Source of the DNA: Escherichia phage vB_EcoM_G9062
DNA length: 64,000 nt
Reading direction: 5' to 3' (one strand)
Sequence record: NC_054920.1
A model generated the notes under the pieces. The model did not search any database. It was given only the letters and a program-made list of their open reading frames with translations, and was not told the origin of the DNA. A program made the position numbers and the translations under genes. Of this stretch, positions 1,904 through 42,807 are shown in pieces; positions within the stretch are counted from its first letter, which is position 1; each line of letters begins with the position of its first letter.

Positions 1904-2908
1904 TTAACTTACCAATTCAATCCAAGTCGGACGAAGTACATCTTGTACCATTTTAACTAATTCCTTTTTAACCAAAGAAGGATTATCTGCTTGAGTTAGA
2001 GTAATACCTTCACGAGAAGTTTCTTCCAAAATATCTTGAACAGTTAGTCCCATCACCTTTCCAAAATCCTTCGGACCAATTTCACCAATTTTAGAAATAA
2101 CGTTATTTACTCGGTTCAGTGTAACGTAGCAAGCTAAAATTCCCACCAATTTGTTATCAGCTTCTGATAGTTCAACTTTAGCTTTAATAGGCTTATCAGA
2201 CTTTTTCTTTTCACTAAATTTGGAATTCTTGCATTTGATGGCTACACGATTTCCATTATGAAGCCAAGAAGGATAACAAGGTTTCAATACATATCCTTCA
2301 GCGGTAAATACTTCGCCTTTGGCTTCAGCTTTCCAAACACATTTGTTAGCGTCAACTAATCCAGCATGGTCTACTGTAAAATTATAATCTTGGACGACAG
2401 AATCTAAATCATTTGGCAATTTAATAAGTTCTTCAAATTTACCACGACCTAAAAGTGGAGCCATTTTAAATTTAAATGTATTACAAAATGATTCCATCAT
2501 ATAATCATCGACATAAGTCACATCACCACTTTCTGTAGTGACAATAATGTCAAATACATAAAAATCTTTATCGCCATAATCGACATTCTTCTGAATGCCA
2601 GGTCCAGCGAATTCGCCAAAGACTTGATAAGATACAACCGCTGAGGTTTCCATAATATCTTGTACTGCTTTAATAGAATCTTCGTAATTCTTTAGAATAA
2701 TTTCATACCCAAAGAAATCTTCAGCAGGAAGAATCGGTCCAGTACGTTTAGCGCAAGTTACTTTATCACGCTCAATAATCAATGAGAAATTTGTGCCGTG
2801 AATCTTTTCACGAGCTACCCACTCCCCACCAGTCAATCCCAAGCTATAAAGTTTTTCAATAAATTTAGAGTTGTAATGATTTTCAAGACTGCTATACTTT
2901 TTAAACAT
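1904..2908 (-). CDS. rnlB: RNA ligase 2 (Rnl2)
   Basis: 334 aa; N-terminal nucleotidyltransferase motif KIHGTN; matches T4 Rnl2 in length and sequence. Confidence 0.93.
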
Positions 2909-2917
2909 AATTAATCC

Positions 2918-3196
2918 TCAAAATGTAATTTCTAACCAATCACCATCACGCTGATCACTATTGACTTTAAAGCTGAATCCTTCTTTTCTCAGCCAATCAC
3001 CAATTTCTTCAGTAATCAATTTATCACGAGCAATACAATAATAACTAAAATGTGTTTTACCTTGTTCAGCTGCTTTATTAGCAAGTTCCGAAAAATCTTT
3101 AATAAAACACTCTAGCTTAAACTGTTTACTTTTAAGTGCTTTTTCGCGCAATTGATTAGCAAAAGATTCATTTTCATAAAGATCATACTGTTCCAT
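2918..3196 (-). CDS. Hypothetical protein (position of T4 24.2)
   Basis: 92-aa ORF with ATG start, synteny. Confidence 0.6.
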   Translation of the reverse strand: MEQYDLYENESFANQLREKALKSKQFKLECFIKDFSELANKAAEQGKTHFSYYCIARDKLITEEIGDWLRKEGFSFKVNSDQRDGDWLEITF

Positions 3197-3398
3197 TTTT
3201 CACCTTTTTATTGATATGTCTTTTTCTATAGACGACTTTTTCTCGAGTTTCAAATTTATTTTTAGCAGTCATAGCTCGAGCCCATAATACAGCCACTTCT
3301 TTTGCCTGTAAGTTTAATTCACGAGCAATTTCAATGAATGACTTTCCAGACTCATGAAGAGTAAACACCACAACCTCAGTTCTCATAATCAATCTCAT
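3183..3398 (-). CDS. Small putative helix-turn-helix protein (position of T4 24.3)
   Basis: 71-aa ORF; segment SFIEIARELNLQAKEVAVLWARA resembles an HTH. Confidence 0.5.
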   Translation of the reverse strand: MRLIMRTEVVVFTLHESGKSFIEIARELNLQAKEVAVLWARAMTAKNKFETREKVVYRKRHINKKVKNGTV

Positions 3399-3468
3399 GT
3401 TATCGAGTTGGTGCCATTATATACATCATTTTCTGATTGTGTTTTGTGTGCTTTCAAAATGAAGAAAG

Positions 3469-3482
3469 GGGCCGAAGCCCCT
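3469..3482 (-). terminator. GC hairpin downstream of hoc
   Basis: ggggc-cgaa-gcccc stem; T-rich on minus strand side. Confidence 0.4.
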
Positions 3483-3487
3483 TATGA

Positions 3488-4906
3488 TTATGGATAGGTA
3501 TAGATGATACCAGTTTCTAAAGCAGTTTTATGAATGATGTATCCATTACGCGATTCTTGAACATCAACTTCTGGATAGTCTTTCATCATCTTCTGAAGAG
3601 TGTAACGATGTAGGTAATATTTACTATCTGGGTCGTCAGTTTTCCAATCTTTACCTTCTTCGGTCATTTTTTGGATTTCATCCATAACCCACCAACCGCA
3701 CCAGATATAAGCTGAAGTACGATGTGGAAGAGGATGAACATAAGGTAGTTCACCTTCTGGTTCTGGAGCAACTTTATCAGTTACCTGAACTTGACCTTCT
3801 GCTGTAATAGTTTTGCTATCGTAATCAGTTGCAGTAACGACAGCAGTAACTTCAATAGTTTGACTTCCAACAGATGAGGTATCGACAGTATATACGTTAG
3901 TTGACCCTTCTACAGGAGAAGAATCTTTCTTCCATGAGTAAGTAATTTGTGCTTCTTCTGGAGCACCCGTAACATTAGCCGTAAATGTAGCCGAAGCATC
4001 TTGCTGAACATTAATAGAAGGAGGAGTCAATGTAACCTGTGGATTCATTGTCTTCTTATTAACTGTCAATGATACTTCATTAGAAGTAACTTCCTTTTCA
4101 TTGTAATTTTCAGCAGTTACTTGGGCTACGCATTTAATTCTTTTTACTCCACTTGTAGTTGGAGTATAGCTAAATGTAGAGTTAGTTTCTCCACCAACTT
4201 GTGAATCATCTACATACCACTGATACGTAGCAGACGCTCCATCAGGTTGAGAAGCTAAGGCAGCAGTAAATTGAACTGGGGTTCCGATTACTCCCGCTGG
4301 AGGACTATCAGGAGTTACTGCCAAAGTAGTTGTCTGCGTCTTTTTATTAACAGTTAGTGACACTTCATTGGAAGTAACTTCCTTTGTATCATAATCTGTC
4401 GCGGTTACTTGAGCTACGCACTTAATTGTTTTAACTCCGCTTGCGTCAGGAGTGTAATTGAATGTAGTGCTAGTTGCTTCGCCCACAGGAGAACCGTCAA
4501 CGTACCATTGATACGTAGCGTTTGCACCTGATGGCTGTGAAGCTAAGGCAGCGGTAAATTCAATTGGAGTTCCAATCACTCCAGCATCAGGGCTACCAGG
4601 AGTTACTGCCAAAGTAGTTGTTTGTGTCTTATTTTGAACTGTGATAGTTGTACTAATTTCAGCTGTTTCAGGTTCAGATTCTGCAACTTGATTGGTTGCA
4701 ACTACTTTAATAGTCTTTTGACCGGCAGGTCCTTTTAGTACATAACTAAAAGTTGCTGACGTTTCTTCCTGTGGAGCGTCGTCTACAGTCCAAGCATATG
4801 TAATAGTTCCGCCTCCAGTTTCACCACTGGGTGTAGCAGTAAACTGCTTAGTTTCATCAATAACCCCTGTCGGTGTTTTAGGAGTTATATCAACTGTAAA
4901 AGTCAT
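3488..4906 (-). CDS. hoc: Hoc outer capsid decoration protein, 472 aa with an extra Ig-like domain
   Basis: N- and C-terminal regions match T4 Hoc (MTFTVDITPKTPTGVIDETKQF...; ...YVHPLPHR..IWCGWWVMDEIQKMTEEGKDWK); tandem ~96-aa repeat. Confidence 0.9.
   Translation of the reverse strand: MTFTVDITPKTPTGVIDETKQFTATPSGETGGGTITYAWTVDDAPQEETSATFSYVLKGPAGQKTIKVVATNQVAESEPETAEISTTITVQNKTQTTTLAVTPGSPDAGVIGTPIEFTAALASQPSGANATYQWYVDGSPVGEATSTTFNYTPDASGVKTIKCVAQVTATDYDTKEVTSNEVSLTVNKKTQTTTLAVTPDSPPAGVIGTPVQFTAALASQPDGASATYQWYVDDSQVGGETNSTFSYTPTTSGVKRIKCVAQVTAENYNEKEVTSNEVSLTVNKKTMNPQVTLTPPSINVQQDASATFTANVTGAPEEAQITYSWKKDSSPVEGSTNVYTVDTSSVGSQTIEVTAVVTATDYDSKTITAEGQVQVTDKVAPEPEGELPYVHPLPHRTSAYIWCGWWVMDEIQKMTEEGKDWKTDDPDSKYYLHRYTLQKMMKDYPEVDVQESRNGYIIHKTALETGIIYTYP
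4048..4624 (-). repeat. Tandem in-frame duplication (two ~288-bp units) inside hoc encoding near-identical Ig-like domains
   Basis: Protein repeats TQTTTLAVTPGSPDAGVIGTPIEFTAALASQP... and TQTTTLAVTPDSPPAGVIGTPVQFTAALASQP... ending SNEVSLTVNKK. Confidence 0.8.
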
Positions 4907-33545: not shown

Positions 33546-34724
33546 TTAAAAATATTTTTTAAAACTCATCATAACTTTATCATCAACATCATTATCAATC
33601 TGTGCTACAAGATAAGATGACAGTTCTACTTCTTGTGGCGCGGATTGAACATTATCAGAATTAAGATATTCACGAATCCAAGGATACGGATGTTTAACCG
33701 GAGCATCGGTAATTGGGCATGGAAGACCGCACTGTTTCATACGAGATACAGTTAAGTAATCAATAAAGCTCCACATGCTATTTGTATTTAATCCAGGAAC
33801 ATCGCCATCTTTAAATAAATGAACTGCCCAGTCTTTTTCTTGACGGTTAACTTCCATGAAAATATCAACTGCTTCTTGTTCACACTCTTTGGCAATTTTA
33901 ACCCATTCATCACCATCAGTGCCAAGTTGAAGTTGACGAATAATATATTGTGTACCTTTAAGATGAAGCTGCTCATCACGTGCAATGAACTTCATAATCT
34001 TGGCATTACCTTCCATGATTTCCATGTTTTTATGGAAGTTAAAGGTACACGCAAAGGATACATAAAAACGAATAGCTTCTAATGCATTAATAACGTGCAA
34101 ACAGAGGTAAAGAGATTTCATTAGCTCACGCTTCCAATATGTCTCATGCTCAATAGCATCTTCAATAACGTCTTCGTCTGCATTAATTTCTTTTTGGTAT
34201 TCGATATCAGCTTTAGCGTTTTCCCAATAACGAGTTTTAATCAGAACATCATCATAATAACGTCCAATGGATTCAGCACGTTTCATAATAGCTTCATCTA
34301 ATACAATTTCATCAAATACCTTCGATGGATCAGTATAAAGATTTCGCATGATATGAGTATATGAACGACTGTGAATAGTTTCACTAAAAGTCCATGTAGC
34401 AACCCATGTATCAAGACTTGGGTCTGAAATTAACGACATAAGTACAGCAGATGGTGCACGACCCTGAATGCTATCCAAAAGTGATTGATACTTCAAGTTG
34501 TTAGTAAAAATATCTTGCTGATATTGAGGAAGCTTGTTAAATTGCGCAGCATCCATCATTAAGTTTACTTCTTCAGGACGCCAGAAAAATGACAACTGCT
34601 TTTCGGTTAAATCTTCAAAAACTTTATGACGTTGAATATCATAACGCGCAATACCAAGACCTGAACCAAAAAACATAGGTTCTTTTAAAACATCAACTGG
34701 ATTTGTATTAAAAACTGTGCTCAT
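33546..34724 (-). CDS. nrdB: Ribonucleotide reductase small subunit, intronless
   Basis: 392 aa from MSTVFNTNPVDV...; single uninterrupted ORF. Confidence 0.92.
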   Translation of the reverse strand: MSTVFNTNPVDVLKEPMFFGSGLGIARYDIQRHKVFEDLTEKQLSFFWRPEEVNLMMDAAQFNKLPQYQQDIFTNNLKYQSLLDSIQGRAPSAVLMSLISDPSLDTWVATWTFSETIHSRSYTHIMRNLYTDPSKVFDEIVLDEAIMKRAESIGRYYDDVLIKTRYWENAKADIEYQKEINADEDVIEDAIEHETYWKRELMKSLYLCLHVINALEAIRFYVSFACTFNFHKNMEIMEGNAKIMKFIARDEQLHLKGTQYIIRQLQLGTDGDEWVKIAKECEQEAVDIFMEVNRQEKDWAVHLFKDGDVPGLNTNSMWSFIDYLTVSRMKQCGLPCPITDAPVKHPYPWIREYLNSDNVQSAPQEVELSSYLVAQIDNDVDDKVMMSFKKYF

Positions 34725-35455
34725 AAATTTTTCCTCTTTAAAATTCTGCCGTGTTTCCAACCTGGCGGTATAATATCATCTTTACCTATAAGCGTGCATT
34801 CACTTCCATTATTAATCCATTTCTTACCGCGGATTCCTTTATAATCTCTTGGTTTTATTTTGTCAAACTTTGCATCAAGTTGATATGACCATCTAAATCC
34901 ATAAGCATATTGAAATTTACCCTCGGCACAATATTTGATATTTGACCCGTTTCCATTAACTGACCGGGACGCTGCCGCAATAGAGTGAAAGGTTTCTATG
35001 AAATCCCCATCTAATGAGAATTTATGTATTTCTACAGATGGGCACGCATATCTATTCACGTTAGATACATGCTGTTTAGTTTCGTTTTTATGATGCTTGC
35101 CTAGCATCCCTTTAGGATGAGGATTATTTTTCCAATATTTCTTAAAGAACTCAGAATTAGCTTTAGCAAATAATTTTCTGTGTAAGCTGTACAATCTGTT
35201 ATTAATTCTATTGCCAGCTTTATCTGTTGCCATTAACGTTAACGCAGAGGCAAGACCAAAATGGCCTTCATTTATCTTACATAGTAATAGATGAGCTATA
35301 AAATGTTCTCTGGCTGTTAATTCAACTAAATTTTCCTTATCATCAGAACCTCCCATACATTTAGGGATTATATGATGTGTCTCTTTATATTCTAGTAAAG
35401 ATTCCCGAGCCTGAGCTCGGGAAATTAGGTCGTTATAGATTTTTTGATAATTCAT
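34721..35455 (-). mobile_element. mobE: Free-standing HNH homing endonuclease (MobE-like) between nrdA and nrdB
   Basis: 244 aa; HNH motif HHIIPKCMGGSDDKENLVELTAREH; C-terminal YAYGFRWSY DNA-binding-like motif; start overlaps nrdA stop. Confidence 0.8.
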
Positions 35456-37719
35456 TACAATTTACACGCTGCGCAATCATCGGCTTTTGGAGTTTCTATT
35501 TCATAATCATCAGTACCAGAACCATCGCGGGTATTATGATAATAGAAATTTTTAATGCCATAATACCATCCGTATAGCATGTCATCAATCATTATTGACA
35601 TTGGAACCTTTCCTTTTGGAAAAATCTGTGGGTCATAATATGTATTCGCTGAAGCTGATTGACATACCCATTTCAGCATAATAGCTACCTGCGTAAGATA
35701 AGGTTTATTACCTTTCTTAGCTAATTTCCATGTATAATCATAGAGGTCTATGTTATGTTCAATATTGGGCACGACTTGATTAAAGGAACCCTCTTTTGAT
35801 TCTTTAACAGAGACTGGTCCACGTGGAGGCTCGATACCGTTTGTACTGTTAGAAACTTGGGAAGATGACTCACATGGCATAAGTGCTGATAATGTGCTAT
35901 TACGGATGCCAAAGAGCTTAAGGTCTTCCCGCAGCGACGACCAGTCACAAACGTATTTTGGAGCTGCGATTTGGTCAATCTTTTTATTGTACCAGTCGAT
36001 AGGTAATTCGCCTCGAGACCAACGAGTGTCTGAATAATATTCGCAAGGTCCTTTTTCTTTGGCGAGCTTAATGGATGCTTTAATGAGTCCATACTGTAAT
36101 CTCTCAAATAGTTCATGTGTTAAATCGTTAGCATCTTCATAAGAAGCAAAGTTACTTGCCAGCCAAGCTGCATAGTTAGTAACACCTACACCAAGGTTTC
36201 GACGCTTTTTAGCTTTTTCTGCTTCAGGAACTGGATATCCTTGGTAATCCAAAAGATTATCAAGAGCACGAACTTGAACTTCTGCTAATTCATTAATTTT
36301 ATCTTGGTCTTGCCAATCGAAGTTATCCAGCACAAATGCAGATAACGTGCACAATCCAATTTCAGCATCAGGACTATTCACATCATTTGTTGGAATAGCA
36401 ATTTCACAGCACAAGTTACTCTGACGAATAGGTGCCTTTTCACGAATAAACGGAGTATAGTTATTCGTATTATCAATGAACTGTACATAAATTCTTGCTG
36501 TTCCTGAACGTTCAGTCATGAGCAATTCAAATAGTTCACGGGCTTTAATACGCTTTTTACGAATATTAGGGTCTTTTTCTGCTGCTTCGTATAATTCACG
36601 GAAACGGTCTTGGTCTTTAAAATAAGAATAATAAAGCTCTCCACCCATTTCATGCGGACTGAACAAAGTAATGTAATCGTTCTTTCCGAATCGTTCCATC
36701 ATCAAATCATTCAGTTGAACACCATAATCCATATGACGAATGCGGTTTTCTTCTACGCCTTTGTTATTTTTCAAAACGAGAAGATTTTCAACTTCCAAAT
36801 GCCAAATAGGATAATAAGCAGTAGCAGCGCCGCCACGAATTCCACCCTGTGAACATGATTTAACTGCAGTCTGAAAATGTTTCCAAAAAGGAATAACACC
36901 AGTATGGCGTACTTCACCCATGCCAATCTTAGAACCTTCGGCACGAATCATACCAACGTTAATACCAATTCCAGCGCGTTTAGAGATATATTCAACAATT
37001 GAAGCGGAAGCCTTGTTGATAGACTTTAATGAATCACCTGCCTCAATAACAACACATGAACTAAACTGTCGAGTCGGAGTACGACAACCAGCCATAATAG
37101 GAGTTGGTAATGAAATCTGTCGAGTAGATACTGCTTCATAAAAACGAATAACGTGTTTTAATCTATCAACAGGTTCATCTTGATGCAAGGCCATTCCAAT
37201 AGTCATAAATGCAAACTGTGGAGTTTCATAAATTTGACCAGTGGTTTTATCTTTAACTAGATATTTTTCTTTTAATTGCATCGCCCCGGAATAAGTAAAT
37301 TCCATATCCCGTTCGTGCTTAATTTTTGATTCTAAAAATGTAATTTCTTCTGCTGAATATTTTGACAACAGTTCAGGGTCGTATTTACCTTCATTTACAC
37401 AGTAAGAAATATGGTCAATAAATGAACGCGGTTCATACTGCCCATAAACATGCTTACGAAGAGCGAACATTAGACAACGTGCAGCTACATATTGATAATC
37501 AGGCTCTTCAACCGAAATAGAATTCGCAGCGGCCTTAATGACAATAGTCTGAATATCATCAGTTGTCATTCCATCACGGAGATAAGATTTAATATTTTCA
37601 TATAATTCATAAGGATCTACTGATGTTCCCTCAGCTGCCCAAGATAAAACTTTAATAATTTTTTGTGGGTCAAAGCTCTGAGAAACACCACTACTTTTGA
37701 TAACATTAATTAATTGCAT
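35455..37719 (-). CDS. nrdA: Ribonucleotide reductase large subunit
   Basis: 754 aa, same length as T4 NrdA. Confidence 0.93.
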   Translation of the reverse strand: MQLINVIKSSGVSQSFDPQKIIKVLSWAAEGTSVDPYELYENIKSYLRDGMTTDDIQTIVIKAAANSISVEEPDYQYVAARCLMFALRKHVYGQYEPRSFIDHISYCVNEGKYDPELLSKYSAEEITFLESKIKHERDMEFTYSGAMQLKEKYLVKDKTTGQIYETPQFAFMTIGMALHQDEPVDRLKHVIRFYEAVSTRQISLPTPIMAGCRTPTRQFSSCVVIEAGDSLKSINKASASIVEYISKRAGIGINVGMIRAEGSKIGMGEVRHTGVIPFWKHFQTAVKSCSQGGIRGGAATAYYPIWHLEVENLLVLKNNKGVEENRIRHMDYGVQLNDLMMERFGKNDYITLFSPHEMGGELYYSYFKDQDRFRELYEAAEKDPNIRKKRIKARELFELLMTERSGTARIYVQFIDNTNNYTPFIREKAPIRQSNLCCEIAIPTNDVNSPDAEIGLCTLSAFVLDNFDWQDQDKINELAEVQVRALDNLLDYQGYPVPEAEKAKKRRNLGVGVTNYAAWLASNFASYEDANDLTHELFERLQYGLIKASIKLAKEKGPCEYYSDTRWSRGELPIDWYNKKIDQIAAPKYVCDWSSLREDLKLFGIRNSTLSALMPCESSSQVSNSTNGIEPPRGPVSVKESKEGSFNQVVPNIEHNIDLYDYTWKLAKKGNKPYLTQVAIMLKWVCQSASANTYYDPQIFPKGKVPMSIMIDDMLYGWYYGIKNFYYHNTRDGSGTDDYEIETPKADDCAACKL

Positions 37720-38036
37720 AAGTCCTCAACTTGAAAATCGTCTTTAAACAATCGGTTAACTATATGAGCTATTATATCACCATGACACGGCTTTGGTTTA
37801 CATGTGCATCCTAGCCTCATTCCACGTAAAGGCTCTAAATGTGCTTTAGTTATTTCTCCGGATTTAATTCGACGTATAAAATCTTTTTTGAATAATTCAA
37901 TGGCAGCCTCCCGGCTGCCAGCATCTTTACCGACGTAATTTCCCCAAAATGTACCGCGGTGAATATTAACATCAAAGTCGGATTTATATTTATTCACTAC
38001 CTGGCATAGACGGCCCGCGCGGTGATAATTCGTCAT
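37710..38036 (-). CDS. DUF4326-like small Cys/His protein (nrdA.1 position)
   Basis: 108 aa; motif [13 protein letters not shown]. Confidence 0.6.
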
Positions 38037-38265
38037 ATTGTTTTTCCGTTAAAACAGTAATATCATAGTAACAATCAGAAGAAGTTTTAACTGTAGAAAT
38101 TTTATTATCAAAATACTCACGAGTCATTTTATGAGTATAATATTTTTTGCCATAAATGATAATAGGCTGATTTGGTCCTGGAACTTCTAGCTCACTTGGA
38201 TTAGGAAGTGTAAAAAGAACTGCACCAGAAGTATCTTTAAATCGTAAAATCATATATCCTCGCAA
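37990..38265 (-). CDS. Hypothetical protein (nrdA.2 position)
   Basis: 91-aa ORF. Confidence 0.55.
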
Positions 38266-38276
38266 TTAAATTGAAA

Positions 38277-39137
38277 TTACACCGCCATCTTTCCTTTAAT
38301 TGGCGGGTGAGATACATAGTTGTTAAGAACAAAATTATGCGGCTTTGCGAATTGACTCAACCAAAATACCTGTGATTCTGTACCCCATTCATCGAATTCA
38401 TCTGGAAATTTTAATTGCAATTCGCATAAATCCATAGGTTCACGACGCAAAATTTCTTTACATTGTTCTACGTGATTCATATAGATATGAGTATTACCAC
38501 CAGAAAATATCAAATCTCCCGGAATAAGATTACACATCTTAGCTACAATATGAACTAACGCAGCGTATGATGCAATGTTGAATGGCAAGCCCAAGAACAC
38601 GTCAACACTTCTTTGATACCACTGTAAATCCAAATAGCCATTACGCACATTAAACTGATAGAACATATGACAAGGAGGTAATGCCATTTGCTTAAGTTCT
38701 GCCGGATTCCATGCTGAAACAATTTGACGCCTATCATTTGGCAGTTTTTTAATACGATCAATAACTTCTATAATTTGGTCTACACCGCCAAAATCACGCC
38801 ATTGTTTTCCATAAATTGGACCAAGTTCACCGCTATGGTATCCTAAATCTTTTGCTTGATTTTCGTAATTTTCATCCCAGACTGTTTTGCCTTGAATTAA
38901 TGAATTATGTTGAATTAATCGCAAATCATTTACGTTAGTACTTCCTGATAAGAACCACAATAACTCAGAAATACATGCATTCCAGGCGAGCTTCTTAGTT
39001 GTTACTGCAGGAAAACCTTTAGTTAAATCCCAGCGTAATTTAGTACCGAACAAAGCAATTGTTCCTGTGCCTGTTCGGTCATCGGTTTCATAGCCATTTT
39101 CAAAAATGTCTTTAATTAAATCTTGGTATTGTTTCAT
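38277..39137 (-). CDS. td: Thymidylate synthase, intronless
   Basis: 286 aa continuous ORF; catalytic region PPCHMFYQF. Confidence 0.93.
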   Translation of the reverse strand: MKQYQDLIKDIFENGYETDDRTGTGTIALFGTKLRWDLTKGFPAVTTKKLAWNACISELLWFLSGSTNVNDLRLIQHNSLIQGKTVWDENYENQAKDLGYHSGELGPIYGKQWRDFGGVDQIIEVIDRIKKLPNDRRQIVSAWNPAELKQMALPPCHMFYQFNVRNGYLDLQWYQRSVDVFLGLPFNIASYAALVHIVAKMCNLIPGDLIFSGGNTHIYMNHVEQCKEILRREPMDLCELQLKFPDEFDEWGTESQVFWLSQFAKPHNFVLNNYVSHPPIKGKMAV

Positions 39138-39182
39138 TTAGTACCTTATATAAATTATAATACATTTTATGAAGCTAAATAA

Positions 39183-39530
39183 TCAATACGGTTTAGCATC
39201 AAATTTTCTCTCAATTTCAGGCGTGAAATATAATTCTTTACCGCGTTTGGAAAAGCGACCAATAATATGATAATTATTCTCATCAAACGTGATATTACCA
39301 ATATCCATAGCTTTCAACCAAATATCGATATTTCTATCCAGCTTTATGTCAAAATTCCAATACGGTGAACTATTACCGAAAATACTGCAAGCGGATTCAG
39401 TGAAACAACTGCTATAAATCTTGTCTTTAGGAACTACTAATTGATAGACACCTTTAATAAACTGAGGACCCTGCCACTTTGGCTGTTTCGTGTCTTTTTC
39501 TAATAGAATAGGGTAATAATTAAAATTCAT
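39183..39530 (-). CDS. Hypothetical 115-aa protein inserted between frd and td
   Basis: ATG-initiated ORF filling a ~410-bp gap between genes that adjoin in T4. Confidence 0.6.
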   Translation of the reverse strand: MNFNYYPILLEKDTKQPKWQGPQFIKGVYQLVVPKDKIYSSCFTESACSIFGNSSPYWNFDIKLDRNIDIWLKAMDIGNITFDENNYHIIGRFSKRGKELYFTPEIERKFDAKPY

Positions 39531-39549
39531 ATTTCCGCCACGCGTTATT

Positions 39550-40376
<827 letters not shown>

Positions 40377-40387
40377 ATTATCTCCTA

Positions 40388-40720
40388 TTAAAAAGGATCA
40401 GGAACATATCCGCTAGCTTTAATCATTTTAATTAACGTTAACATTCCTTTGTTAACTGCTCGTGAGATTTCATCAAAAACTTCATCACTAAAAAGTTCTA
40501 ACACGCCCTTCTGAACTTTTAATTTACAGCCAACAATTTCGTCATCTCCTATAGTAAATTCGCTTCCGCCAATTCCGCCGAAAAACTTAATTACGCCAGT
40601 TAACTGTCTTCCACGAGAATATGGGTCGTGTGATAAAGTAATATGAGTCACCCCGGGTACAGTTTTAAATTGGCAGCGAATATTTACTTGTGAAATTCCA
40701 ATTACATGAATGTCAGACAT
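40388..40720 (-). CDS. Hypothetical protein
   Basis: 110-aa ORF. Confidence 0.55.
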   Translation of the reverse strand: MSDIHVIGISQVNIRCQFKTVPGVTHITLSHDPYSRGRQLTGVIKFFGGIGGSEFTIGDDEIVGCKLKVQKGVLELFSDEVFDEISRAVNKGMLTLIKMIKASGYVPDPF

Positions 40721-40730
40721 AATATTTTCC

Positions 40731-40973
40731 TCAAATAGACTTTTTCACAATTTTCCAATCAGCTTTAAACTGATCGACGTCAGAGTGATAAATCCAAAAT
40801 CCTGCGCTTTCACCGTCTTCATAAAGCGGACACCCATCACATTCATCTTCCCATCCCATGCCACGTAAAAGGTGTTCAGCTTTTTCAACAAGTTCAGAAT
40901 CTTTACCGATGATATTAAAATACCATTTACCTCTAACTTCTGAATCTTTGATACTCTGACGTTGTAATCTCAT
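40731..40973 (-). CDS. Hypothetical protein
   Basis: 80-aa ORF. Confidence 0.55.
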   Translation of the reverse strand: MRLQRQSIKDSEVRGKWYFNIIGKDSELVEKAEHLLRGMGWEDECDGCPLYEDGESAGFWIYHSDVDQFKADWKIVKKSI

Positions 40974-40982
40974 TTTATTCTC

Positions 40983-41052
40983 CTTAGCAAGCTTTAATCA
41001 AAAGATATAAACAGACCAACATAACTGCTGCCATAATATAAGGTGCGAACAT
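40983..41052 (-). CDS. Possible 22-aa hydrophobic peptide
   Basis: MFAPYIMAAVMLVCLYLLIKAC with SD ggag; early promoter upstream. Confidence 0.3.
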
Positions 41053-41111
41053 TTTCTTTTCTCCATTAGTTTTGATAGGGTAATAGTATCACACTACTAC
41101 CCTTTTGTAAA

Positions 41112-41477
41112 CTACTTTTTGAAAGTTTTTCGCAAAAGTTCAATGATTTCATCTACATTGTTTTCGTCAACAATGCAGTGAATTTTTGTTACGCCAGAAA
41201 CTATGTCTTCGGCTCCATCTTCTTCAGAAGTCGGTTCTTTATACTCGCGAAAACAATGAAATTCGTCTTCACAAACGTTAAAGTAAAAATGCTTTCCATT
41301 TGCGCATTCAATGTGTTTTATTACTCTAAATCCATCAACAAAGAAAGCTTCTTTAACTTCAAACCATCCACCATTTTCTTGAATAATTTTAACTATCGAT
41401 GAATTAGAACGTGGGCGATAATTAATAAATGTATCAATAAGTCTTGGAACAAGCTCATACTTTTTGCCAATATACAT
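41112..41477 (-). CDS. Hypothetical protein
   Basis: 121-aa ORF with SD gagga. Confidence 0.55.
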   Translation of the reverse strand: MYIGKKYELVPRLIDTFINYRPRSNSSIVKIIQENGGWFEVKEAFFVDGFRVIKHIECANGKHFYFNVCEDEFHCFREYKEPTSEEDGAEDIVSGVTKIHCIVDENNVDEIIELLRKTFKK

Positions 41478-41522
41478 TACGTTTTCCTCATTTTAACGGG
41501 GCTTGTAATAGCCCCTTGATAA

Positions 41523-41753
41523 TTATTGTTCAATCAATCCCATGTAAAATTCTGCGTCTTCAGAATCCATACCATCACAATATTCATTAGCCATAAAGCG
41601 GGTGAGGTCTTCAAGAGGACCTTCAATGACAATAGAAAAATTGCAATAATTGGGATCATCGTGAATACTTGTGATACTAAGTTCAGGATAACGATTACGA
41701 ATAATTTCTTCGATATATTCAAAATCAACGATGTCAATATCAACTTTAGCCAT
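41523..41753 (-). CDS. Hypothetical acidic protein
   Basis: 76 aa from MAKVDIDIV...; the longer track ORF would read through the promoter. Confidence 0.5.
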
Positions 41754-41782
41754 ATTATTTTCCTCTTTAATTATCAGCAGTA

Positions 41783-41816
41783 TTGCCGATAGTTGTATAG
41801 TACCATGGAAGGACAA
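41783..41816 (-). promoter_or_regulatory. T4-type early promoter
   Basis: Minus strand GTTTAC, 18 nt, gGTACTATAC. Confidence 0.5.
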
Positions 41817-41857
41817 GGATGTAAACAGTTTTGTGAAAAAATTTTTGAAATAAAAAA

Positions 41858-41876
41858 GGGGACCTCTAGGGTCCCC
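41858..41876 (-). terminator. Terminator downstream of gene 32
   Basis: Imperfect GC stem ggggacc...ggtcccc followed by T6 on the minus strand. Confidence 0.6.
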
Positions 41877-41898
41877 AATTAATTAGTAATATAATCTG

Positions 41899-42807
41899 TT
41901 AAAGGTCATTCAAAAGGTCATCTAGGTCCGTGTCATCAGCACTAGATGAACTGCCAGAGCTTGAGCTCATAAAATCATCTTCAGTTTTTGTTTTGAAGTC
42001 ATCAACATTGAATGCATCCAAATCATCAGCAACTTTATCAGCTTTCTTAGCGGCAGTTGCAGCGGCACCACCCATTGCAGCAGTTCCCATAACTTGACTG
42101 AACTTAGTGCTCAGTTCTTCAAATGATTTGAATTTATCTTTAGAAGTCATTTCAGAAAGGTCAACCATTTGTTCGAACAGTTCTTTCTGGAAAGATTCAT
42201 CGTCAATGTTTGGAATCGCAGATTGATTCAGGAATTTAGATTCGTCGTAGTTACTAAAACCAGAAACTTGTTTAACTTTCAGTACAAAGTTAGCACCTTC
42301 CCACGGGCAAGTTACATCAACCGGAGTTTCACCCATTTCAACATCAACTGCAATCATTGCATTGATTTTATCCCAGATTTTCTTACCGAAACGATATTTA
42401 AATACTTTACCTTCGTTTTCTGGAGCAGCTGGGTCTTTTACAACAAGAATGTTAGCCCAGTAAGAAGTTTTACGTTTAACAAGACTGTACTCTTTATTGT
42501 CAGTGTTGTACAAATCATTTTTACTGATGTACTGACATACTGGACAAGAATCGTAATCACCGTAGGTAGATGAGCATGTTTCGATATACCATTTACCATT
42601 TTTCTTGAAACCGTGATTTACAAGAAGTGCGAATGGTGCTTGTTCATCATTTTTAGACGGAAGAAAACGAATTACTGCTTGGCCGTTACCCGCATTGTCG
42701 AGTTTCAGTTTCCACTCGCCTTTATCTTCAGAAGAAAAACCACCTTTATTTCCAGCCAGTTTAGCCATTTGCGCAGCGAGTTCAGCAGTAGATTTACGTT
42801 TAAACAT
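41899..42807 (-). CDS. 32: Single-stranded DNA-binding protein gp32
   Basis: 302 aa; acidic Ser-rich C-terminal tail [22 protein letters not shown]. Confidence 0.95.

Follow-up and report, generated by a model that had tools for sequence, protein, structure and literature searches.

In bacteriophage T4 (NC_000866), the genes for dihydrofolate reductase (frd, 145109-145690) and thymidylate synthase (td, which ends at 145112) overlap by 4 nt within an ATGA motif, a direct overlap mentioned in a preliminary description of the locus considered here. In relatives of T4, a small gene which has already been catalogued under several names occupies this junction. The GenBank entries of T6 and T2H (AY262134, AY262132) use the name td.1, while the records of RB32, RB14 and RB51 designate the same gene RB32ORF229c. 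None of the T6, T2H or RB32-type entries assigns a function, and no function is given in the annotation of the protein family to which the product belongs, PHROG 1928. Literature searches on td.1, RB32ORF229c, phrog_1928 and frd together with td retrieved no paper on the gene, and two reviews, on T4-related genomes and on phage nucleases, do not mention it. An identical Td.1 protein is encoded on 104 public contigs, where it is named 'hypothetical' throughout. Two more specific labels are attached to the protein in phage records: 'putative homing endonuclease' in four BASEL phages (MZ501106, MZ501052, MZ501046, MZ501050) and 'putative glucose-1-phosphate adenylyltransferase' in phages BW-1 and pSe_SNUABM_01 (OR125554, NC_054937). 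The latter was rejected as an annotation error, the protein showing no Pfam or NCBIfam nucleotidyltransferase match and being, with 115 residues, far too small.

Among the other described systems with which td.1 invites comparison are the free-standing seg and mob homing endonuclease genes of T-even phages. Like them, td.1 occupies an intergenic position and shows presence/absence polymorphism. In contrast to them, it has no nuclease or DNA-binding module, is half their size, displays ancestral synteny and is under purifying selection.

The locus investigated lies in the window, a stretch of 64,000 nucleotides from Escherichia phage vB_EcoM_G9062 (NC_054920.1). The open reading frame found there between frd and td is td.1 and thus not a new gene. 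With the Td.1 of T6 and T2H, it shares the length of 115 aa, the position between frd and td, the strand and a 99% identical protein (T6 Td.1, ABI48938). The neighbouring td genes differ, since T6 td contains a group I intron and the window td does not.

The td.1 gene and its neighbours

The ORF list and the sequence place an ATG-initiated frame of 115 aa between frd, its upstream neighbour, and td, its downstream neighbour, all three on the same strand. Its translation, which starts MNFNYYPILLEKDTKQPKWQGPQF, is the one quoted in the preliminary description. The junction comprises the following features:

38277..39137, minus strand: td (thymidylate synthase), 286 aa, without group I intron (Pfam Thymidylat_synt, E 8e-95)
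39132..39140, minus strand: direct repeat TAAATGAAA, downstream copy, spanning the td start codon, 416 nt from the upstream copy
39138..39182, minus strand: td.1-td spacer, 45 nt, with a promoter-like site and the AAGG ribosome-binding site of td (consensus scan and sequence reading)
39183..39530, minus strand: td.1 coding sequence, 115 aa plus TGA stop, member of PHROG 1928 (ORF list and profile match)
39531..39549, minus strand: frd-td.1 spacer, 19 nt, AATAACGCGTGGCGGAAAT, with a weak GGA-type ribosome-binding site (sequence reading)
39548..39556, minus strand: direct repeat TAAATGAAA, 9 nt, upstream copy, spanning the frd Lys-stop and an ATG-AAA-TAA mini-ORF
39550..40131, minus strand: frd (dihydrofolate reductase), 193 aa from MIKLVF, with its TGA stop at 39552-39550 (Pfam DHFR_1, E 6e-19)

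The frd stop and the td ATG are separated by 412 nt, for which about 410 bp had previously been estimated. The 3' end of frd matches T4 frd exactly up to the repeat, and td forms one unbroken frame of 286 aa without the I-TevI gene, whereas td is split in T4 and T6. A mini-ORF reading ATG-AAA-TAA (39545-39553, minus strand) overlaps the frd TGA. It begins with the same two codons as td and has the appearance of a remnant left by an ATGA-coupled junction.

Several putative expression signals were located around td.1. A consensus scan returned a promoter-like site at 39186..39157 on the minus strand (TTGATT-18-TATTAT), and the td.1-td spacer also holds TTTAGCTTCA-N10-TATAAT, at 39179-39154 on the same strand, which resembles a MotA box followed by a -10 element as in T4 middle promoters; both are consensus matches only. 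This spacer is conserved in T6 and SP1, shortened in SF and absent from T4. A terminator scan gave nothing relevant, and an Rfam scan of positions 37000-42000 produced a single match at chance level.

The td.1 gene belongs to the prereplicative frd-td-nrdA nucleotide-metabolism cluster. Between frd and frd.1 (DUF5417, 40731-40973, minus strand), the window carries two further genes on the minus strand, one of 81 aa (phrog_3183, 40131-40376) and one of 110 aa (Pfam DUF7247, 40388-40720). In T4, only a 72-nt gap separates frd from frd.1, so that T4 is shorter at a second spot in the cluster. Just downstream of nrdA, a 244-aa ORF with HNH and NUMOD1 matches (34721-35455, minus strand) represents a free-standing homing endonuclease gene about 3.7 kb from td.1; the equivalent site of T4 and T6, which lies between nrdA and nrdB, is occupied by mobE.

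The td.1 ORF is a real protein-coding gene under strong purifying selection. The comparison covered seven Tequatrovirus and Mosigvirus copies together with two metagenomic relatives; between the more divergent Tequatrovirus and Mosigvirus copies, pairwise dN/dS ranges from 0.03 to 0.07, with dS reaching about 1. One could consider that the frame is a non-functional spacer, open by accident and perhaps kept only for the expression signals of td. The promoter-like site between td.1 and td would suit such a spacer, as would the stronger DNA conservation of the first and last 60 nt of the ORF relative to its middle. This reading is nevertheless barely credible: substitutions in td.1 are nearly all synonymous, homologues with 26-47% identity retain both the length and the invariant residues, the structural model of the protein is confident, and an open frame of 115 codons is improbable by chance in AT-rich DNA.

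Ancestry of the frd-td junction

The preliminary description regarded the ORF as inserted between two genes which overlap in T4. The distribution of td.1 speaks against this direction. A search of 50,697 phage records with Td.1 (tblastn) identified 579 matching records, 361 with at least 90% identity and 218 with less than 60%. With a 1-kb probe of the locus, 535 phage records were matched, and the complete frd-td.1-td arrangement was present in 351 of them. The gene is found at the same position in T2, T6, many RB phages and about two-thirds of Tequatrovirus records. Diverged homologues also immediately follow frd in at least nine further T4-like genera, as exemplified by Enterobacter phage MY742 (unclassified), Edwardsiella PEi26 (Kanagawavirus), Klebsiella Mineola (Jiaodavirus), Erwinia Cronus (Roskildevirus), Salmonella STML-198 (Gelderlandvirus), Klebsiella Potts1 (Marfavirus), Citrobacter Moon (Moonvirus), Serratia CHI14 (Winklervirus) and Escherichia EcS1 (Kagamiyamavirus). 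These proteins are 26-47% identical to Td.1, and their start codons usually overlap the frd stop. In the window and in 11 phage or metagenome loci, the gene follows frd and precedes td with all of them on one strand, and in IMG/VR frd immediately precedes, and td follows, the td.1 family in all 14 loci. Between genera, the identity of Td.1 (27-47%) broadly tracks that of Frd (44-54%), which fits vertical descent.

Most of the phages listed contain an adjoining second ORF of 113-144 aa. This ORF is a paralogue (HMM E 4e-9 to 5e-20; phrog_1928) distinguished in alignments by about 20 residues inserted into its first loop. PHROG 1928, which the window Td.1 matches over its full length (E 1e-35, residues 4-111), thus merges two kinds of protein, type a, to which the window Td.1 belongs, and type b, with the insertion, which includes the second ORFs of the other genera. 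Tequatroviruses retain type a only, and an HMM search of the 64-kb window revealed no td.1 paralogue elsewhere. In the nearest outgroup contig (Logan SRR23814683, whose Td.1 is 63% identical), the order is frd, paralogue a, paralogue b, a 69-aa gene and td. MY742 has the same gene order, and in both the adjoining genes overlap by stop and start codons; such overlaps in the array are of the ATGA type wherever the sequence was read. In Cronus, paralogue b is placed between frd and the a copy. The 69-aa outgroup gene belongs to phrog_9550. Collectively, td.1 is the first gene of an ancestral frd-td array of T4-like phages which consists of two PHROG-1928 paralogues and a 68-aa phrog_9550 gene.

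To survey the state of the junction, 60 of the 535 matching records were taken at even spacing. About 40 of the 60 carry td.1 (T2, T6, RB3, RB6, RB14 and RB51 among them), about 11 have a 68-aa gene instead (Shinka, ACG-C40, Sf21, EC121), and the junction is empty in four (two records of T4, G28 and HY03). The 68-aa gene belongs to phrog_9550, the family of the third gene of the outgroup array. What was kept of the one ancestral array thus differs between Tequatrovirus lineages, which is the signature of differential loss. Genes of the phrog_9550 family, 68-69 aa long, were located at 1238-1444 in the phage Shinka locus (L013) and at 4670-4879 in locus L015, and they fill the frd-td slot in about one-fifth of the sampled matching records; the Shinka record labels its copy DUF4858, and Pfam shows no match.

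The comparison of this junction among T-even phages, proposed in the preliminary description, thus gave a divided answer: the gene occurs in most relatives but not in T4, and no function is attached to it. With both flanks identical to the window, T4 contains the repeat only once (TATATAAATGAAACAATACC), so that its junction corresponds to the window minus one repeat-to-repeat unit of 416 bp. RB69 has the same kind of single-copy junction. A six-frame HMM search of the complete T4 genome detected no member of the PHROG-1928 family (best E 0.6). Because T4 and RB69 lack it, td.1 is dispensable. On the proposed scenario, the array would have eroded differently among Tequatrovirus lineages: the window phage, T2 and T6 would have kept td.1 alone, a second group would have kept only the 68-aa gene, and T4 would have lost everything through a 416-bp deletion between the two TAAATGAAA repeats, recreating an ATGA-coupled frd/td junction. 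It is highly probable that td.1 is ancestral and dispensable rather than inserted, and that T4 lost the whole array by this deletion.

The reverse direction has also to be considered, in which the ATGA overlap of the T4 type would be ancestral and td.1 would have been inserted in the lineage of the window, duplicating TAAATGAAA in the manner of a target site. The cassette is indeed flanked by a 9-nt direct repeat resembling a target-site duplication, the end of frd keeps ATG-AAA, the first two td codons, followed by a stop, and td.1 has clearly entered some Mosigviruses laterally. By itself, the TAAATGAAA repeat does not tell the direction of the event. It consists of coding-constrained bases (the K-stop of frd and the M-K of td) and is a common 9-mer here, with 11 copies per 64 kb of this genome; neither a transposase nor a nuclease is present. 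Deletion between short direct repeats is a classical type of mutation in T4. What makes an insertion improbable is the occurrence of td.1 homologues behind frd in all other genera inspected, as well as in the closest outgroup contigs, and the fact that the alternative junction gene of Tequatroviruses, phrog_9550, is also part of the outgroup array, for which differential loss accounts and insertion does not.

Loss from an ancestral array does not explain every state of the junction. While td.1 is missing from most Mosigviruses, a few of them (SF, PTK and Shf125875) carry it, with a protein 93% identical to that of the window, compared with 60% for Frd and 82% for Td. At the DNA level, td.1 of SF (1509-1856 of locus L014) is 89% identical to window positions 39183-39530, while frd is 62% and td 76% identical. 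Between the window Tequatrovirus and SF, td.1 has a dS of 0.66, below those of its flanks (frd, 2.1; td, 1.7), which indicates that td.1 also moves laterally, and hence that the presence and absence states are not all due to simple vertical loss. Its first and last 60 nt are 97-98% identical between Tequatrovirus and SF, and its middle 80-85%. As judged from these sequence comparisons, the pattern of identity between SF and the window points to lateral exchange of td.1 between genera. SF has no 19-nt spacer, its td.1 ATG overlapping the frd TGA directly, whereas the window has the spacer and the relic ATG-AAA-TAA; small indels at ATGAA repeats therefore recur. A metagenomic locus (L020, IMG/VR UViG_3300045988_128797, 2400-4251) matches the window at 99.5% identity in Frd and 100% in Td.1 but at only 86% in Td, which places a recombination boundary at or just after the td.1-td spacer.

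Predicted fold and possible roles of Td.1

Td.1 is a mildly basic protein of about 13.7 kDa with a pI of 8.5. The preliminary description had seen no recognisable motif in it, which the profile searches bear out: Pfam, NCBIfam and PADLOC returned no match even at E<=10, and the best hit of a PDB profile search had an E of 0.24, which is not significant. Neither a PD-(D/E)xK nor another catalytic nuclease motif was detected, and no nuclease was significantly matched in PDB by sequence or structure. Searches of 1.8 and 5.8 billion proteins recovered some 50 relatives, all of them phage proteins of 95-148 aa and none with a fused domain or a Pfam domain. The long matches P0021 and P0023 were discarded as repetitive eukaryote-like sequences.

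An AlphaFold2 model built from a 25-sequence alignment reached a mean pLDDT of 92 and a pTM of 0.85. It contains strands at residues 6-12, 27-34 and 62-64, a helix at 68-77 and strands at 80-82, 86-96 and 99-104, and Td.1 is confidently predicted to fold, into what would be a small barrel of five beta-strands whose single helix separates the third strand from the fourth. The comparison with OB folds covered the order of secondary-structure elements in this model, b1-b2-b3-helix-b4-b5, which matches theirs. When the fold was compared with PDB entries up to April 2026, no structural match was significant, OB folds included. The weak matches are mostly OB-fold nucleic-acid binders (HIN, Teb1, ExoVII, Cdc13, S1, RecO, SSB and RPA), and those in BFVD are only uncharacterised proteins, mostly of T4-like phages.

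Alignments of the family revealed five invariant residues (W19, G27, G91, K95 and G97) and four near-invariant ones (L9, Q16, Y29 and F93), R92 being also conserved; the window Td.1 has all of them. Td.1 resembles OB folds of the SSB, RPA, S1, HIN and Cdc13 type in its predicted strand-helix order within about 100 residues, and in its conserved aromatic and basic residues in the loop between strands 1 and 2 and in the strand 4-5 region. In the model, Q16, W19, G27, Y29, G91, R92/F93, K95 and G97 would sit in the strand 1-2 loop, in strand 2 and in the strand 4-5 hairpin, which are the usual ligand sites of OB folds, and these residues may share one face. Given the OB-fold order and the placement of the conserved residues, a small binding module would be expected. 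Td.1 would be an early protein, presumably translated from the message that also carries frd, its neighbour immediately upstream on the same strand. Its ligand would be single-stranded nucleic acid or else a protein partner in the machinery of nucleotide synthesis and replication, which it might tune in some hosts or conditions. We tentatively propose, on the basis of the model, that Td.1 is an early OB-like protein of this kind; the assignment is plausible without being probable. Since T4 and most Mosigviruses do well without td.1, any role in core nucleotide metabolism would be auxiliary.

Other functions have to be weighed against this proposal. The preliminary description had raised the possibility of a remnant of a mobile element, and a degenerate homing endonuclease would be in keeping with the label in the BASEL phage records, the position between conserved genes, where free-standing homing endonuclease genes are also found, the presence/absence polymorphism, and the true homing endonuclease genes nearby, namely I-TevI inside the td gene of T4 and, in the window, an ORF resembling mobE. 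The protein itself makes such an origin very improbable. It has no GIY-YIG, HNH, LAGLIDADG, NUMOD or other Pfam or NCBIfam domain at E<=10, is about half the size of Seg and Mob proteins, and is predicted with confidence to form a single compact domain. Its dN/dS of 0.03-0.07 is unlike that of a decaying gene, and none of its 50-odd relatives, all within 95-148 aa, is a longer form bearing a nuclease. The junction is empty in T4 and RB69, as it might be in a homing-type distribution, yet td.1 is syntenic across genera.

A second possibility, an accessory or anti-defence gene having also been suggested in the preliminary description, is that Td.1 is directed at the host, as an accessory, counter-defence or takeover factor which blocks a bacterial protein, for example a defence attacking nucleotide pools or modified DNA; the gene would be kept where the host has the target and lost otherwise. 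This would accommodate its uneven occurrence among close relatives (T2 and T6 have it, T4, G28 and HY03 do not), the three alternative contents of a single slot, the lateral exchange into a few Mosigviruses, the duplication of the paralogue in other genera, the small size of the product encoded in an early-gene cluster, and the viability of T4 without any member of the family. Purifying selection on td.1 is strong, however, and shows no trace of an arms race, which speaks against such a role, as does the fixed position after frd in phages infecting Escherichia, Klebsiella, Edwardsiella, Erwinia, Serratia, Citrobacter, Salmonella and Enterobacter, which would be unusual for host-specific counter-defence. 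Td.1 also shows no significant similarity to solved anti-defence proteins (PDB to April 2026), and no literature on td.1 was found that would lend it such a function. A host-directed role is thus the main alternative, though a rather unlikely one. The best explanation overall remains an ancestral td.1 array, eroded in Tequatrovirus, whose product is a small OB-like binding protein; we give this combined reading a probability of roughly 0.5.

Implications for T4-like phages

The observation from which this analysis started was accurate and its direction was misread: td.1 is a catalogued gene lost by T4 and not a novel insertion. T4 is the reference genome of its group and yet is the exception here, having lost an array which most of its relatives have kept, so that reading the 'extra' genes of these relatives as insertions is misleading at this locus. 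The case also illustrates how overlapping stop and start codons generate short repeats, and how these repeats allow the clean loss of whole genes while the neighbours remain translationally coupled.

Td.1 represents a conserved and confidently folded family without a solved relative, which is unsurprising for a T-even phage, about half of whose genes are in the same situation. It is conceivable, though doubtful, that PHROG 1928, with Td.1 and its paralogue, constitutes a previously unstudied fold whose function was missed because T4 had deleted the gene, and which would serve either as a part, needed in certain hosts or conditions, of the T-even machinery coupling deoxynucleotide synthesis to replication, or against bacterial defences acting on nucleotide pools. 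The position of td.1 between the dihydrofolate reductase and thymidylate synthase genes, invariant across at least ten genera, would in that case carry functional meaning.
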